A stretch of 64,000 nt of DNA, from contig JAFKGR010000019.1 in NCBI GenBank assembly GCA_017307735.1, positions 2,622-66,621 on the forward strand. The letters run 5' to 3'. The notes below the pieces were generated by a model, which saw nothing but the letters and a program-made list of their open reading frames with translations, was not told where the DNA came from and did not search any database. Shown one piece after another: positions 56,841-64,000 of the stretch. The stretch comes from Chitinophagaceae bacterium (GTDB taxonomy: Bacteria > Bacteroidota > Bacteroidia > Chitinophagales > Chitinophagaceae). The number at the start of each line of letters is the position of its first letter. Within the stretch, counting starts at the first letter, position 1. The translations under genes and the position numbers were made by a program.

Positions 56841-57866
56841 ATGGCAAAAAAAGTTGTTACACTCGGAGAAATAATGCTTCGTTTATCCACACCTGACTAT
56901 AAGAGATTTGTTCAGGCAGATAGTTTTGATGTTACTTATGGCGGCGGTGAAGCCAATGTGGCCGTAGCTCTTTGTAATTATGGACTGCAGGGTGTTTTTG
57001 TTTCAATAGTTCCTGAGAATGCTATCGGCCAGTCAGCGATCAATCATTTGCGCCGCTTTGGCGTGGACACACAATTTATGGTTCGCGGAGGAAAAAGATT
57101 AGGCATTTATTTTCTGGAAACCGGTGCTTCCATGCGTCCTTCACAAGTCATATACGATCGTGCTGATGCAGCGATTGTCGAAGCTGATGTAATCGATTTC
57201 GATTTTGATAAAATATTTGAAAATACATCCTGGTTTCATACGACCGGCATTACACCCGCTTTAGGCGACAAAGCAACTGTACTTACGGAAGCCGCACTGA
57301 AAGCCGCACGGGCAAAGGGAATTACTACAAGCATTGATTTGAATTATCGTAAGAAATTATGGAGTAGGGAAAAAGCAAAAGAAGTGATGACGCGGCTTTG
57401 CCGGTACGTAGATGTATGCATCGGCAATGAAGACGATGCAGAAACTACGCTCGGTTTTAAAGGCAAAGGAACTGATGTTACCAAAGGACAATTGAACCTT
57501 GATAGTTATAAAGATGTTTTTCAGCAGATGAAGGAAAAATTTGGTTTCAAATATATCGCTTCAACGCTGAGAGAGAGTTATAGTGCTTCAGATAACGGAT
57601 GGAGCGCGCTGGTATATGATGGCAATGAATTTTATCATACCAAAAAATATGAAGTGCGAATCATAGATCGCGTGGGCAGCGGTGATTCATTTGCCAGCGG
57701 ATTCATTTACGGATTGGTTTCGGGAATGGAAATGAAAGATGCAGCCGAATTTGGCGTAGCCGCATCTGCATTAAAACACACAATCCCCGGCGACATCAAT
57801 CATGCTACACTCAATGATGTAAAAAATCTGGCCAAAGGCGATGCAAGTGGTAGGGTGCAGAGATGA
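56841..57866 (+). CDS. kdgK: 2-dehydro-3-deoxygluconokinase (PfkB family)
   Basis: GEIMLRLS, YGGGEANVA, IDLNYRKKLW, DRVGSGDSFASG. Confidence 0.9.
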   Translation: MAKKVVTLGEIMLRLSTPDYKRFVQADSFDVTYGGGEANVAVALCNYGLQGVFVSIVPENAIGQSAINHLRRFGVDTQFMVRGGKRLGIYFLETGASMRPSQVIYDRADAAIVEADVIDFDFDKIFENTSWFHTTGITPALGDKATVLTEAALKAARAKGITTSIDLNYRKKLWSREKAKEVMTRLCRYVDVCIGNEDDAETTLGFKGKGTDVTKGQLNLDSYKDVFQQMKEKFGFKYIASTLRESYSASDNGWSALVYDGNEFYHTKKYEVRIIDRVGSGDSFASGFIYGLVSGMEMKDAAEFGVAASALKHTIPGDINHATLNDVKNLAKGDASGRVQR

Positions 57867-57970
57867 GGGTAATGAATAGTGAATTTAAAAAAAATCGTAA
57901 AAAAGCAAGTTTCATAAACGATGTCTAAAATTGGCAAATCTGATCGTATTTGCCTCAACAAAAAAATAGA

Positions 57971-58423
57971 ATGATAATAGACCACTTGTCGAACGCAGAA
58001 AAATACTTTTGTTTACATCCCCTGTTCAAACAGGCATTCGAATACATACAGTCAACGGATCTCAAAGCAATTGAGCCAGGGAAATTTGAGATTAATGAAG
58101 ACAAGCTTAGGGCAGCCATTTCCAATAAACAAGGCAGGACTGCAGAAGAGGCTTTGACGAAGTTTGAATGCCATGACAGGCATATTGATATACAACTCTG
58201 CATTAGCGGTAAAGAAACAATAGCATGGAAAGCCCGAAGTGCCTGCAAACAATTAGAAGGAGGGTATGATACAGAAAAGGATGTTTCTTTTTTTAAAGAT
58301 AAGCCGGATATGTATTTTCAATTAGAAGACGGACAGTTTGCTGTTTTTTTCCCGGGAGATGTGCATGCCCCTATGATTGGTGAGGAAGAGATTAAGAAAT
58401 TAGTAGTAAAAGTAAAAATGTAA
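57971..58423 (+). CDS. YhcH/YjgK/YiaL family protein (ORF track starts at 57950)
   Basis: FECHDRHIDIQ, FAVFFPGDVHAP, KKLVVKV. Confidence 0.92.
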   Translation: MIIDHLSNAEKYFCLHPLFKQAFEYIQSTDLKAIEPGKFEINEDKLRAAISNKQGRTAEEALTKFECHDRHIDIQLCISGKETIAWKARSACKQLEGGYDTEKDVSFFKDKPDMYFQLEDGQFAVFFPGDVHAPMIGEEEIKKLVVKVKM

Positions 58424-58447
58424 TTTTTCAAATTTAATAATGAATAA

Positions 58448-59110
58448 ATGATGGAAAAGAAATCTGAATTATTAAAGCTGATACCAAAACAAGGTGTGTT
58501 ACCACTTTATTTTTATAAAGATGAAGAAGTAAGTGTAGAAGTATTAAGAAGTTTATACAATGCCGGCATGAGAGCAGTTGAATATACCAACAGGGGAGAG
58601 GCGGCATTGCAGAATTTTAAGAAAATGAGGCGTGTATGTGATCAGGAATTAACCGGAATGTATCTGGGTGTTGGTACGATAAAGAGTGCTGAAATGGCTG
58701 AAATTTTCATCAGTGAAGGGGCAGATTTTATTGTTTCTCCAGGATTCGTCGTGGAGGTTGCCGATGTTGCCGATAAAAGCAATATGTTATGGATTCCCGG
58801 TTGTATGACTCCGTCAGAAATTATTCAAGCGGAAAATTTAGGTGCTTCAATGATTAAACTTTTTCCCGGGAATCTTCTGGGTCCTGAATTTATGAGTTCA
58901 ATAAAAGCTCTGTTTCCGGATCTTTTATTTATGCCAACAGGTGGTGTGAATCTGGATAAAGAGAATATTTCTGCATGGTTTAAGGCGGGTGTTTGTGCAG
59001 TGGGAATGGGTAGCAAACTCATCAGCAAAAAATTATTGGAACAAAAAGATTATGCAAAGATTGAGGCGTTGGCAAAAGAGGCTCTGAGTATTGTGCAGTC
59101 ATTAAAATAA
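58448..59110 (+). CDS. eda: KDPG/KHG aldolase
   Basis: VEYTNRG, LGVGTI, GADFIVSP, PGCMTPSEI, IKLFPG, MPTGGV, AVGMGSKL. Confidence 0.93.
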   Translation: MMEKKSELLKLIPKQGVLPLYFYKDEEVSVEVLRSLYNAGMRAVEYTNRGEAALQNFKKMRRVCDQELTGMYLGVGTIKSAEMAEIFISEGADFIVSPGFVVEVADVADKSNMLWIPGCMTPSEIIQAENLGASMIKLFPGNLLGPEFMSSIKALFPDLLFMPTGGVNLDKENISAWFKAGVCAVGMGSKLISKKLLEQKDYAKIEALAKEALSIVQSLK

Positions 59111-59463: not shown

Positions 59464-59489
59464 ATAGTTAGGAATCCTTACTATGTTTG
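59464..59489 (+). promoter_or_regulatory. Palindromic operator plus adjacent -7 box
   Basis: ATAGTTAGGAATCCTTACTAT near-perfect palindrome (59464-59484) overlapping TATGTTTG (59482-59489). Confidence 0.72.
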
Positions 59490-59531
59490 TAACGGCAATA
59501 ATGCCAAACAACAATTTAATTTATTAAGCAA

Positions 59532-59765
59532 ATGGCAAAATCAATTTTCTATCACGCAGGCTGTCCTGTTTGTATCAGCGCAGAGCACGACATTATTAAC
59601 CTTATTGGCGAGACCAACGTTGAAATTGTTCACATTGGCGAAAACCGTGACCGGATTGCAGAAGCGGAGAAAGCGGGGGTAAAATCTGTCCCCGCTTTGC
59701 TTACTCCAAACGGGAATGTGCTTCACCTCAACTTTGGTGCGTCTATGGCCGACGTTAAAGACTAA
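59532..59765 (+). CDS. Small thioredoxin/glutaredoxin-like protein (CPVC)
   Basis: FYHAGCPVC and GVKSVPALL motifs in 77 aa. Confidence 0.85.
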   Translation: MAKSIFYHAGCPVCISAEHDIINLIGETNVEIVHIGENRDRIAEAEKAGVKSVPALLTPNGNVLHLNFGASMADVKD

Positions 59766-59812
59766 AGAAATTTCACAACTTGTTATTAGATTAACCATCA
59801 AAATTTAAAAAA

Positions 59813-60550
59813 ATGAAACATTTATTTCTCTTTCTCGGAGTTTCCTTGTTCACTGCCAAAGGTTATGCTTGTGAAAAATGCGGAAACTACAACAATGATG
59901 ATTTCCAAATCAAAAAGGTAACCGTAAAACATTCCTCTGAAATTGCGGCTACCATTTGGGAAATTACCGTAAAAGGAACAGCAGGGAAAACAACACCCAC
60001 ACCGGCAGGCCAGCTCAACGGAGCACCCGTTTTGGGCTATGTATTTCCCACTACATTAAAACCGGCAGACGTTGGATTTGGTAACACTGAAGGTATAGTT
60101 GCACTTGCCTTGACATCACACCCGGACTTTGACGACACACCACTTTGGGATGAAAACGCCGACCGCAATTATGGCAATGACGGTATTATCTGGCACCCGC
60201 ATTGGGTGGTTTTGACTGAAGACAAACGTGTGGAAGGCGGTTTGGCTGTAAAAGAGTTTGATCCTAAAGACACAACAGTTGTAATGCCTCCGACTAATCC
60301 CGGAATGCCCATGTATATGGATTCACCTGGCTTTCAGGTTATCACAATGGGAAATACCATTAGGGTGGTTGTTCCCGATTATAGAATGAACAACAAGACT
60401 GATTTTTCTTATGATGGTGTTGCAGCCTATATGCAGGTAAATACCGGTGGTGACGGAGGACATGGTAGTGGAGATAAACCTAGGCTTGGCGTTTACAAAG
60501 TGTATTCTGTTGCCAGTGGAAATCTGTCTTTACCGTACCAGGTGAAGTAA
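59813..60550 (+). CDS. Secreted hypothetical protein with N-terminal CxxC and His/Asp-rich motifs
   Basis: Signal peptide ending KGYA, then CEKC; TSHPDFDDTPLWDEN and WHPHWVVL segments; no known domain recognised. Confidence 0.8.
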   Translation: MKHLFLFLGVSLFTAKGYACEKCGNYNNDDFQIKKVTVKHSSEIAATIWEITVKGTAGKTTPTPAGQLNGAPVLGYVFPTTLKPADVGFGNTEGIVALALTSHPDFDDTPLWDENADRNYGNDGIIWHPHWVVLTEDKRVEGGLAVKEFDPKDTTVVMPPTNPGMPMYMDSPGFQVITMGNTIRVVVPDYRMNNKTDFSYDGVAAYMQVNTGGDGGHGSGDKPRLGVYKVYSVASGNLSLPYQVK

Positions 60551-60558
60551 TTTTGTTT

Positions 60559-60593
60559 GCCTTGCAAAGTTAGGACTCCTATCTTTGCAAGGC
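60559..60593. promoter_or_regulatory. 35 bp palindrome containing operator core and -7 box; may also act as terminator
   Basis: GCCTTGCAAAG-t-TAGGA-c-TCCTA-t-CTTTGCAAGGC; includes TATCTTTG (60580-60587). Confidence 0.75.
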
Positions 60594-60731
60594 TTTTATT
60601 TTTATTGTTGGGAAATATTTTGATGATGTGGCAAAGTTTAATTTGGAAACTTTTCAAAGGTGAAAGGTGAATGAAGCAAAATGAGGGACAGGCAACTTAG
60701 GAGGATTAATGATACATAATATTCAGTGCGC

Positions 60732-61337
60732 ATGAAATATTCATCATTTAATTTAAGTGAGCAAAACCAAAAAATTGAGAGCCGTATAGTAGTGGCTTTG
60801 GAACGAATTGCGGAAGCGTTCCGGGTATTGCTTTGGAATGAAAGCAAAGAAAATTCATTAAGCCCAATCCAAATTCAGATTCTGATTTTTGTCAATTTTC
60901 ATTCGTCAGAAAAATGCAAAGTAGGCTATCTGGCAAATGAGTTCAATATGACCAAGGCCACCATTAGCGATAGTGTAAAGGTGTTACTTGCCAAAGATCT
61001 GGTCAACAAGGAAACCGACCCGGCAGACACAAGAAGTTATTCGCTTTCCCTGACAACCAAAGGAAAAAAAATTGCCAAAAAAGCATCCTTTTTTGCTTCT
61101 TCCATTGAGCAACCGCTTGAAAAGCTCACGGAAGACCAAAAAACGATAATGCTCAACGGCTTGCTAAAATTGATTTATGACCTGAATAAATCAGGTGTTA
61201 TAACCGTTCAGCGAATGTGTTTTAATTGTTCAAATTATCAGTTTGACAAGGGTGTTCATTACTGCAAACTTCTGAAGACCCCGCTCGCAGAAAATGAACT
61301 GAGGGTGGATTGCCCGGATCACGAATTACAACTATGA
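60732..61337 (+). CDS. MarR-family transcriptional regulator with C-terminal Cys/His motif (ORF track starts at 60726)
   Basis: LSPIQIQILIF, LANEFNMTKATISDSVKVL, DTRSYSLSLTTKG; C-terminal CFNC...HYCKLL...CPDH. Confidence 0.9.
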   Translation: MKYSSFNLSEQNQKIESRIVVALERIAEAFRVLLWNESKENSLSPIQIQILIFVNFHSSEKCKVGYLANEFNMTKATISDSVKVLLAKDLVNKETDPADTRSYSLSLTTKGKKIAKKASFFASSIEQPLEKLTEDQKTIMLNGLLKLIYDLNKSGVITVQRMCFNCSNYQFDKGVHYCKLLKTPLAENELRVDCPDHELQL

Positions 61338-61893: not shown

Positions 61894-64000
61894 CTACATA
61901 ATCCTATTAATTTTTTCCTTCCATTCATCTTCAAATACCACCTGAAACTTAAAACTTTTGTCAGGAAATTCGTCAAATAACTCTTTCCATGTCTTTTTTG
62001 CTCCTAATTCATTGCAAAGGTCAAATACACTTTTCTTATAGCGTGTGTCATCATTTTCTTTCAGGTGGACACCCTTTGTTTCCAATACATAGACGGTATC
62101 ATAATCATCTTTTTTTTCTTTGCTGATTTTAGCAGCAACAAAATCAGGGTAGATCTTATTTCGTTGCCAGCCCTGGATATGAAAGTCTTTTCTTGCCCGG
62201 TTGCGGTACCACCAAAGCAATTGTTCTTGTTCGTCCAAATAAATTGCAACGGCTTTTTCCGTTTCGTTTAAATCTTCATCGGGGACATAATCAAACAAAG
62301 ATTTTTGAACAGGTGAATTGTCTGAACGCACCAACTGCCTGTTGCTTTTTACTTTGATATGGGTTGGTATCAAATGATGCCCTTTATCCTGGAGCAGGAA
62401 GAAAAATAACTTTTTCTGATCAAGCAGATTTCTGAAAGCTTCTTCTGCCAAACGGTTTTTCTCTTTATCCAAAATCCTTTTCAACTCTTCAATGATAAAA
62501 ACAAAGTTGGCTGCAATGATTTCCTTATCATATTTCTTTGCAAGTAATCGCAGCGCTTGCCTTCCCAGGTCAAAAGCAATCCAGGGATTAGGTACTATAT
62601 CGCTTAACTGTCTTGCCAAAAAGGCTTCGTCAATTTCAAGTGTGCCCCGGGTTTCCAGCCTTCCGGTTTCCAGTAATAATTCTTTTTCTTCTTTGCTTAA
62701 CCCTAAAGTAAGTTCCTGTTCTTTCGTTTGTGTGCCGCTTAATGTTTTATTGGCTATTTCTTTTAAGTCAATTTTATTCCAGTCAATTCCATTCAATATA
62801 TCTGCTTCGAAAATAACATCCCGCCAGCTTTCTTTTTCCTGTACCACAAATTTGGGCAGGTATATTTTTCCTTCAAATTTTTTAAACCCCGGACGATAAG
62901 TTAAGTCCCGTTCCTTTAAATTCGGTACGCCACCGATAGCTTCATCACTTACCAAACGGCCCGCAATATCCCCTAACCCTTCGTTTTCCAATCCATTTTT
63001 TATTTCGCCTACCAGGGCTGCCGCATTGGGTTTGTATGTATAAATATAGCATTCGTCCAATTCTTTTACCTGGGTTTTTCGTGCATTGGGTTGCCTCAAA
63101 ATCCTGCCGACTAATTGCGTTATGCCGGTTGCGGATTGAGGATTGGTAAGAATGGTTAGGATGTATGCAAAAGAGCAATCCCACCCCTCCTGTAAGGCCT
63201 GTTTGGTAATGATGTAACGTATTTCACAATCTTTGGCAAAAAGATCAATTCCTTCAATGTCGTCCTTTTCACTGCTTTTTATAGCGATTTGTTTTTCCGG
63301 GACGCCACACTTTTTTATCAAAAATTCCTTCGCATCTTCTGCGTGGATAAAATCAGTTCCACGTTGGTCTCTACCAGTGCGTTCCACCTGTATTAAACAA
63401 ATCGGACGAATGTATTCGCCGGTATTTTGTTCATAATCTTTCGCGTTCTTCTCTAATTGATTTCGTTTTTCAAAAGCGGCAAGCATGGTATCTCTCCAAT
63501 CTAAACTTGCTTTATTGGTAAGATGAATATCTAACTTTATCATTTCTTCTTCGTGCAGCTCCCGCCCGGTAATTTTTACCAGCTCATTGCTGTTGGGTGG
63601 CGGTGTTGCCGATAGTTCAAGAATAAAAGAGGGATTGAAATTCCGGATTGTATTTCTTGCCAGTTGGCCATAGGCTCTGTGCCCTTCATCAATTATCACC
63701 AGGGGCCTCAACACTTTCAACGTATTGCCTAAGGAGGTTTTGATTTGGCGTTGAAATATTTCATTCGCTTCACCAAAGTAATCAAGGTTGGGTATATGTT
63801 TCAGCAACTCATTTTGTGCCGGGTAGTTATCTTCTGCTGGAAAAAATTCAGTAAAACCGCCCGCATCCCGAAATACTTTCAGTGTTTCTTTGTTTTGCCT
63901 GTTTGCAGAAGGGAGCATGAGTAACAAAATCACTAAGTTTTCTTCTACATCCAGACGGTTAAATAGTTCTGTTTTCTCTTTTATCAAAGTTCTGCCGCCG
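61894..64000 (-). CDS. Type III restriction enzyme Res subunit-like SF2 helicase/endonuclease, 5'-truncated by the window edge
   Basis: Frame open to 64000 (GGRTLIKEK...); VIIDEGH, LELSATP, KQALQEGWD, QLVGRILRQP; C-terminal YPDFVAA...VLETKG PD-(D/E)xK nuclease. Confidence 0.9.
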   Translation of the reverse strand, partial: GGRTLIKEKTELFNRLDVEENLVILLLMLPSANRQNKETLKVFRDAGGFTEFFPAEDNYPAQNELLKHIPNLDYFGEANEIFQRQIKTSLGNTLKVLRPLVIIDEGHRAYGQLARNTIRNFNPSFILELSATPPPNSNELVKITGRELHEEEMIKLDIHLTNKASLDWRDTMLAAFEKRNQLEKNAKDYEQNTGEYIRPICLIQVERTGRDQRGTDFIHAEDAKEFLIKKCGVPEKQIAIKSSEKDDIEGIDLFAKDCEIRYIITKQALQEGWDCSFAYILTILTNPQSATGITQLVGRILRQPNARKTQVKELDECYIYTYKPNAAALVGEIKNGLENEGLGDIAGRLVSDEAIGGVPNLKERDLTYRPGFKKFEGKIYLPKFVVQEKESWRDVIFEADILNGIDWNKIDLKEIANKTLSGTQTKEQELTLGLSKEEKELLLETGRLETRGTLEIDEAFLARQLSDIVPNPWIAFDLGRQALRLLAKKYDKEIIAANFVFIIEELKRILDKEKNRLAEEAFRNLLDQKKLFFFLLQDKGHHLIPTHIKVKSNRQLVRSDNSPVQKSLFDYVPDEDLNETEKAVAIYLDEQEQLLWWYRNRARKDFHIQGWQRNKIYPDFVAAKISKEKKDDYDTVYVLETKGVHLKENDDTRYKKSVFDLCNELGAKKTWKELFDEFPDKSFKFQVVFEDEWKEKINRIM

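Follow-up and report, generated by a model that had tools for sequence, protein, structure and literature searches.

A mobile thioredoxin, LIPO, and MarR cassette of Bacteroidota as a possible nitric-oxide defence switch

NsrR, an Rrf2-family repressor with a [4Fe-4S] cluster, senses nitric oxide (NO) and controls hmp, ytfE/RIC, and related genes, and many proteins of the MarR family are sensors of oxidants. A further described system is ArnR of Corynebacterium glutamicum, a repressor of the winged helix-turn-helix (wHTH) type that detects NO through a [4Fe-4S] cluster with cysteine ligands and controls hmp and narKGHJI (PMC12343034). We analyzed a stretch of 64,000 nucleotides from a Chitinophagaceae bacterium (assembly GCA_017307735.1, contig JAFKGR010000019.1; hereafter the window, to which positions refer unless stated otherwise), in which three adjacent genes encode a small thioredoxin-like protein (trx77), a secreted protein (LIPO), and a MarR-family repressor with a four-cysteine tail (Cys4-MarR).

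trx77: 59532-59765, forward strand, 77-aa cytoplasmic thioredoxin-fold protein with CPVC (open reading frame read from the sequence).
LIPO: 59813-60550, forward strand, 245-aa secreted or lipid-anchored beta-sandwich protein (open reading frame, conservation, and AlphaFold2 (AF2) model).
MarR-family repressor gene: 60732-61337, forward strand, 201 aa from ATG 60732 or 203 aa from GTG 60726.

We are highly confident that trx77, LIPO, and the MarR gene form a real, autoregulated, mobile cassette. Its function can be stated more tentatively: with a confidence that comes close to an even chance but falls short of it, we read the cassette as a defence switch against NO or reactive nitrogen, with an iron-sulfur (Fe-S) or thiolate sensor on the MarR tail. 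The three open reading frames and the motifs quoted in the original prediction were all found in the sequence, namely CPVC in trx77, CFNC...HYC...CPDH in the regulator, and CEKC (residues 20-23), SHPDFDD, WHPHW, and GGDGGHG in LIPO. The regulator had been started at GTG 60726, and we correct this to ATG 60732 as the most likely start, because a 100%-identical database cluster is 201 aa long.

The regulator combines a MarR core with an appended cysteine-rich tail. It scored 37.7 bits against MarR_2 (PF12802; cut-off 27) and 26.4 bits against MarR (PF01047; cut-off 24.6); the Pfam match spans residues 45-104 only, and MarR proteins from the PDB align across residues 43-157. We found no Pfam match to an Rrf2-type wHTH (NsrR, IscR) at E <= 1. 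The tail of 45 aa has the pattern C-x2-C-x11-C-x15-C-x2-H, at residues 165, 168, 180, 196, and 199 (numbered from the GTG). In a set of 63 orthologues with identities as low as 41%, C168, C180, and C196 never vary, C165 is retained in 98%, and H178 and H199 are retained in 92% and 75%, respectively; the four cysteines also occur in two homologues from other phyla. This conservation is as expected for a metal or Fe-S site.

By analogy, ArnR is the closest precedent of Cys4-MarR, as an analogue and not as a member of the same group. Both have an N-terminal MarR/ArsR-like winged helix, a dimerization helix, and then a C-terminal sensor bearing cysteines. ArnR also acts at a palindromic operator and keeps a globin gene repressed, and the expected common logic would be that the holo-form sits on DNA and is released by NO. 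However, ArnR is a protein of 269 aa, almost restricted to Actinobacteria, whose C-terminal domain spans ~100 residues and bears three conserved cysteines (179, 193, and 223), whereas Cys4-MarR has 201 aa and a 45-residue tail with four cysteines spaced by 2, 11, and 15 residues. The ArnR equivalog model (NF041016) gave 15.9 bits against a cut-off of 400, in the wHTH part only. In its proposed role, the regulator would resemble NsrR as a local repressor of NO-detoxifying haem proteins that is relieved by nitrosylation of its cluster, and RIC/ScdA and globins do occur in or beside Cys4-MarR modules. It differs from NsrR in having a MarR rather than an Rrf2 fold and a regulon confined to a single, horizontally mobile cassette. 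With OhrR, MosR, and AdcR/ZitR, it shares the MarR core and the features of a dimeric repressor that controls a small local regulon through a switch based on cysteines or metal. In those proteins the sensing cysteines or histidines lie inside the MarR core, whereas the proposed sensor here is the tail, and the equivalog models of tested sensing MarR proteins score far under their cut-offs on Cys4-MarR.

The three genes of the window travel together in many other genomes. When we compared LIPO neighborhoods at 80 fetched genomic loci, the order thioredoxin-like gene (TRX), LIPO, an optional DUF2024 gene, and MarR recurred at about 70, on one strand and between unrelated flanks. TRX lay directly upstream of LIPO at nearly all of the loci, and a MarR orthologue lay downstream at about 65-68. 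The genes optionally found between LIPO and MarR were DUF2024 (51 of 80) followed by GGACT-like genes (11) or truncated haemoglobin (8), and a YggS-like gene followed MarR at 13 loci. Co-occurrence elsewhere had been proposed as a test that could overturn the module; we found it to be wide and far beyond chance. Some modules have genes for RIC/ScdA, hemerythrin, ferredoxin, or Crp/Fnr nearby, and in other phyla the neighbors of LIPO homologues include genes for MOSC, DsbA-like, and AhpC/TSA proteins and for the haem protein HTHP. More distant LIPO homologues, at 36-47% identity, come from genomes of 45-63% G+C and adjoin MarR genes whose products have a CxxC...C...C tail, and at one such locus a perfect TTAGGAGTCCTAA precedes the MarR gene. 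Further genes found within modules, encoding DUF1304, a HAD hydrolase, a YceI-like protein, a Na/H exchanger, and a 203-aa protein, gave no functional lead.

The distribution of the cassette is patchy. LIPO was found in 2 of 101 genomes of the host family and not in a genome of the same genus, yet the cassette shares 85-90% identity with its counterparts in other families. LIPO homologues that are 68-90% identical occur across Chitinophagaceae, Flavobacteriaceae, Saprospiraceae, Sphingobacteriaceae, Cyclobacteriaceae, and others. The module moves by horizontal transfer within Bacteroidota, and relatives of it exist in other phyla.

Two copies of a palindrome provide the cassette with putative operators of its own. 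These sites of 17 bp conform to TTAGGAnTCCTAA, and the surrounding features are as follows.

Operator 1: 59465-59481, unstranded, near-perfect palindrome AGTTAGGAATCCTTACT upstream of trx77 (pattern search).
Putative Bacteroidota -7 box: 59482-59489, forward strand, TATGTTTG of the TAnnTTTG type, adjoining operator 1 (read from the sequence).
Operator 2: 60567-60583, unstranded, AGTTAGGACTCCTATCT, preceding the MarR gene here and overlapping a -7-like box, TATCTTTG, at 60580-60587.
Hairpin with U-rich tract: 60559-60593, forward strand, terminator-like, with operator 2 inside it (folding calculation).

The exact 13-mer core, AGTTAGGANTCCT, occurs twice in the 4.1-Mb genome (59465 and 60567), both times within the module, and matches with one mismatch elsewhere in the genome are no commoner than for a control pattern. 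At 75 of the 80 fetched loci the palindrome was present, lying 40-65 nt upstream of TRX (54), LIPO (71), or DUF2024 (32); the site of the operator 1 type is ~60 nt upstream of TRX in those 54. Because the palindrome was found only at the module in the host and in five other genomes, we regard the regulon as local, which bears out the earlier proposal of a self-contained module with its own operator and promoters. The consensus of the Bacteroidota -7 promoter element is TAnnTTTG, and operators next to or over boxes of this type are where a repressor site is expected, so repression seems the probable mode of action. At two distant LIPO-MarR loci from other phyla (L094 5900-6010 and L097 5890-6010), the palindrome is built on TCGA(n)TCGA/GAGTCGA cores and not on TAGGAnTCCTA, and this difference suggests that the operator half-site may have co-evolved with the regulator.

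The copy in the window is a reduced variant of the module, without the DUF2024 gene and without the LIPO operator. It has two operators rather than three, lacking the site that precedes LIPO at 71 other loci, and its trx77-LIPO spacer measures 47 nt compared with about 85 nt elsewhere. Since this short spacer has no operator of its own, LIPO is probably co-transcribed with trx77. The site that precedes DUF2024 in other genomes precedes the MarR gene here, and no DUF2024 gene (PF09630, 87 aa) is found in the window or elsewhere in the host genome, nor a remnant of one in the LIPO-MarR spacer. The hairpin at operator 2 folds at -24 kcal/mol (z = -4.84; none of 200 shuffled sequences matched it) and is predicted to be a terminator-like end of the trx77-LIPO transcript. 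In a metatranscriptomic library, contigs span trx77-LIPO exactly (59531-60548) and reach into neither flank; as the library may contain DNA, and one of the contigs belongs to a variant strain, they are a weak sign of expression.

To ask what the regulator accompanies elsewhere, we searched a profile of the Cys4 tail alone against 401 evenly sampled Bacteroidota genomes. It matched 38 of them, each in single copy, from 29 of 180 genera, and we fetched 14 kb around the regulator in the 37 matched genomes other than the host. The genes adjoining the regulator were TRX (18 of 37 loci), DUF2024 (17), cytochrome P460 (9; often with a c-type cytochrome and sometimes with a ferric-reductase-like membrane protein), LIPO (7), truncated haemoglobin (6), and protoglobin (6), and just one locus had none of these. 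The palindrome precedes a neighboring gene at most of the 37 loci; allowing up to one mismatch, it stands directly upstream of all nine P460 operons and five of the six protoglobin genes. Cytochrome P460 and cytochrome c'-beta are periplasmic beta-sheet haem proteins that bind NO and oxidize hydroxylamine (PMC11928373). What P460, truncated haemoglobin, protoglobin, RIC, and MOSC have in common is NO and hydroxylamine chemistry; oxygen is a secondary possibility. The content of the regulon elsewhere thus favors the sensing of NO or hydroxylamine over metal handling.

Some of these neighbors deserve a note of their own. At the P460 loci (L166-L175, for example L170 7686-9308), an operon of cytochrome c and cytochrome P460 adjoins a longer Cys4-tailed MarR, and the ferric-reductase-like membrane protein occurs at two of the nine. 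The placement of P460 under a dedicated regulator in non-nitrifying Bacteroidota seems to be undescribed. The protoglobins beside Cys4-MarR (L147, L154, L161, L163, L164, and L119) are single-domain proteins, with two in tandem in L164 and a 508-aa fusion in L147, and the operator before five of the six is a candidate physiological context for protoglobins. In literature on DUF2024, on MarR with P460, and on MarR with protoglobin, we found no description of the module.

The sequences show the gene set with its conservation and invariant residues, the operator and its confinement to the module, the patchy distribution, and what the regulon contains in other genomes; the model of how repression, cofactor, signal, and LIPO activity fit together is one that we infer. 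In it, a MarR dimer would bind the palindrome over the -7 box before trx77 and before its own gene, keeping both units repressed. The 45-residue tail would be the sensor, most likely through a [4Fe-4S] cluster or alternatively through a Zn-thiolate site. NO or a related species, such as hydroxylamine or nitrite-derived NO, would modify this site and release the repressor. Derepression would then yield trx77, which may act in the cytoplasm as a CPVC thiol-disulfide or S-nitrosothiol reductase, together with LIPO. His103, His128, His130, and Asp105/107/108/170 of LIPO probably form a mononuclear metal site, with which the protein might bind or convert NO, hydroxylamine, or nitrite outside the cytoplasm, in the slot of the regulon that periplasmic cytochrome P460 occupies elsewhere.

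LIPO belongs to a large family that lacks a recognized fold. A word-indexed search returned 3,843 homologues without Pfam annotation, and an exhaustive search gave 264 clusters at 50% identity. Scans of the family found nothing above noise in Pfam and no match in NCBIfam. From a single sequence, AF2 reached a predicted local distance difference test score (pLDDT) of only 29.9, and from an alignment of 41 sequences, it gave a beta-sandwich with pLDDT 89.7 and a predicted template modeling score of 0.86. With this model, the best Foldseek E-value against the PDB was 0.12, the best wide VIA-align Z was 6.7 (under the noise level of the tool, ~8), and searches of AFDB clusters and of the ESM Atlas, the latter through structure as well as features, returned its own family only; taken together, the fold searches yielded this family or generic beta-sandwiches. 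The view that the 245-aa protein has no characterized family or fold therefore stood up, with no convincing match in Pfam, NCBIfam, Foldseek, VIA-align, AFDB, or the Atlas. Weak resemblances to EbdC and NxrC, both haem-b subunits, reached Z 6.5 and 5.5, below the noise of the tool, and were not used.

The conserved residues of LIPO suggest a metal site. The family signature is TSHPDFDD (101-108), WHxHW (WHPHW here, 127-131), and DSPG (170-173); HPDFDD, WHxHW, and DSPG are kept in 75 of 75 orthologues and also in distant homologues. Nearly invariant are T101, H103, P104, D105, F106, D107, D108, H128, H130, W131, D170, S171, and P172. In the AF2 model, H103 lies at the end of strand 95-102 and H128 and H130 at the start of strand 128-136, so the three histidines would stand side by side if the two strands pair as a hairpin. 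Three histidines placed in this way would resemble classical 3-His metal sites. Like P460, LIPO is a small, exported, beta-rich protein directly behind the operator. The two differ in that LIPO has no sequence or fold similarity to P460 (no Pfam match to PF16694, no CxxCH haem-c motif, and no P460 chain among its fold matches), and we put forward their functional equivalence as a hypothesis.

Other motifs of LIPO are less general. The signal peptide ends in ...GYA-C, with A/S/P-C in 71 of 75 orthologues, and the N-terminal A-C-x-x-C is kept in 71 of the 75 close orthologues, both cysteines being gone together in the other four. These four and all distant homologues lack the first cysteine and resemble signal-peptidase-I substrates, and the distant homologues lack the CxxC as a whole. 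One source annotates an orthologue as 'Lipoprotein'; if LIPO is a lipoprotein, its first cysteine is acylated and therefore forms no redox pair with the second. The GGDGGHG loop, which had been singled out as a feature of the protein, is variable across the family and poorly modeled. Neither the N-terminal CxxC nor this loop is a family feature. The idea that every gene of the module carries a CxxC holds for the motifs themselves, but not as a unifying principle, because the CxxC of LIPO is lineage-specific and dispensable. The extracytoplasmic location of LIPO is confirmed by one homologue that carries a C-terminal sorting domain of the type IX secretion system, found in a Pfam scan of longer homologues; the scans of other longer homologues were uninformative or gave apparently chimeric calls. 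Some homologues (P0121-P0125 and P0127) are tandem duplications of 450-556 aa.

The first gene, trx77, resembles mini-thioredoxins of the MTH895/ArsE type (TIGR00412, Thioredoxin_3) in its length of ~77 aa, its single CxxC near the N-terminus, its cis-Pro-type VP motif, and its lack of a signal peptide. However, its scores were far below threshold (17.6 bits against PF13192, cut-off 24.8; 16.6 bits against TIGR00412, cut-off 62), and it represents a separate small clade tied to Cys4-MarR. Orthologues were present at 71 of the 80 fetched loci, with CPVC in 65 of the 71 and some CxxC in 70.

A general oxidant or thiol-stress cassette is an unlikely reading that still accounts for several observations. 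It would make the Cys4 tail a redox switch, working through Zn-thiolate or a disulfide as in RsrA, Hsp33, or OhrR, that becomes oxidized under peroxide, hypochlorite, or disulfide stress. Thiols would be restored by trx77, and LIPO would serve outside the cytoplasm as an antioxidant metalloprotein. Thiol oxidoreductases are indeed the most constant cargo, as the TRX count at the sampled regulator loci shows; genes for a DsbA-like protein and AhpC/TSA adjoin distant LIPO homologues, and the gene for the peroxidase-like haem protein HTHP follows one homologue. However, P460, truncated haemoglobin, and protoglobin under the shared operator are atypical defences against peroxide or hypochlorite, and genes for catalase, Ohr, methionine sulfoxide reductase, or RclA-type proteins do not recur. 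The regulator does match the OhrR model, but weakly, at 22 bits against a cut-off of 200.

We consider metal sensing improbable. On this reading, Zn or some other metal would attach to the tail and serve as co-repressor or inducer, in the manner of AdcR/ZitR, and LIPO, along with DUF2024 where present, would scavenge or buffer metal as part of an acquisition or detoxification system. The conserved cluster of three histidines and several aspartates in LIPO would suit such a role, as would the CxxC at its mature N-terminus in the host clade, although that motif is dispensable. DUF2024 has been termed a metal-binding protein (PMC6393860). The regulator matches the Zn-dependent AdcR/ZitR model (NF038251) at 32.1 bits, but the cut-off is 175. 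Across the 80 LIPO loci and 37 regulator loci, we found no conserved gene for a transporter of any kind, a TonB-dependent receptor, a P-type ATPase, or an efflux pump. Metal detoxification or acquisition, as originally proposed, is thus the weaker option, because P460, protoglobin, and truncated haemoglobin share the regulator and operator and genes for transporters, efflux pumps, and receptors are not conserved.

An oxygen or hypoxia switch, with an O2-labile Fe-S cluster on the MarR reporting oxygen tension and with globins, P460, LIPO, and thioredoxin adapting the cell to micro-oxic transitions, would fit the binding of O2 by globins and protoglobins, the hemerythrin and Crp/Fnr-type genes near some modules, and the steep O2 gradients of the bioreactors and sludge that the host inhabits, but it is very improbable, as P460 is tied to hydroxylamine and NO chemistry (PMC11928373), the precedent ArnR is degraded by O2 only slowly and responds to NO, and many carriers are aerobes, in which an O2-labile repressor would be permanently off.

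Several observations weigh against an NO or reactive-nitrogen defence switch, the reading that we prefer. The choice of cofactor and inducer rests on guilt by association, and the four cysteines, which fall within 32 residues, could make up a zinc ribbon with no more than a structural role. O2, CO, and sulfide are further ligands of globins and P460, so that oxygen or general redox sensing fits part of the pattern, and the peroxiredoxin, DsbA-like protein, and peroxidase-like HTHP at some distant LIPO loci point to oxidants. LIPO has neither a recognizable NO-handling motif nor a fold match. The host copy may be partly degenerate, with its LIPO operator lost and DUF2024 absent. Finally, nirK was present in 7 of 38 genomes with the regulator and in 43 of 363 without it (raw counts over the 401 genomes, ignoring phylogeny); this association between regulator and nirK is weak and counts mildly against the reading.

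A stronger form of the proposal is possible but doubtful, namely that Cys4-tailed MarR proteins are a new class of Fe-S sensors of NO or hydroxylamine that control an N-oxide toolbox, and that LIPO is a new-fold 3-His/Asp metalloenzyme consuming NO, hydroxylamine, or nitrite. In that form, Cys4-MarR would be a Bacteroidota counterpart of NsrR and ArnR with a mobile regulon, and DUF2024 and bacterial protoglobins would gain a first physiological context. If the NO reading is true, a MarR core with a Cys4 tail would be the third architecture among known Fe-S NO sensors, and one repressor-operator pair would offer a handle on LIPO, DUF2024, single-domain protoglobins, and the cytochrome P460 of non-nitrifiers, all of which would be suggested to act on NO or hydroxylamine. 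This matters for LIPO, with its thousands of homologues outside any Pfam family or known fold, and for DUF2024, which is also universal in ammonia-oxidizing archaea. The cassette occurs among Bacteroidota of sludge, bioreactors, soil, and sea, where turnover of NO, hydroxylamine, and N2O bears on nitrogen removal and greenhouse-gas emission.

The host itself plausibly meets NO. It encodes two NirK proteins (C16:88166-89137 and C30:34262-35152, both above the curated NirK cut-off) and a clade II NosZ (C1:19013-20827), and is therefore at least a partial denitrifier able to make NO itself. Its DNA was found in metagenomes from bioreactors, sludge, wastewater, a bioanode, and soil, and exposure to NO and hydroxylamine is plausible in such habitats.

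The cassette may lie in a decayed integrative island. Upstream of it (56841-59110) are genes for a sugar kinase resembling KDG kinase, a protein of the DUF386 (YhcH/YjgK) family, and a KDPG/KHG aldolase. Synteny with a genome of the same genus covers the kinase and the aldolase and stops right after the KDPG aldolase gene, and the DNA that lies beyond the aldolase in that genome has no match within 19 kb downstream in the host contig. Downstream (61894-63999 and onward, L109 616-10248 on the host contig) are a type III restriction enzyme (ResIII/DEAD), a Bro-N protein, and an N6/N4 DNA methylase, followed by a member of the 23S-rRNA-IVP family, a transposase (rve) of the IS3 type, and a tyrosine integrase truncated to its Arm-binding and SAM-like domains. 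It is the cassette together with these restriction, insertion sequence, and integrase genes that has the appearance of such an island. Two metagenome-assembled genomes (L005/L008 and L001/L036) each contain two copies of the cassette on separate short contigs, which fits either a repeated or mobile element that breaks assemblies or contamination of the bins.

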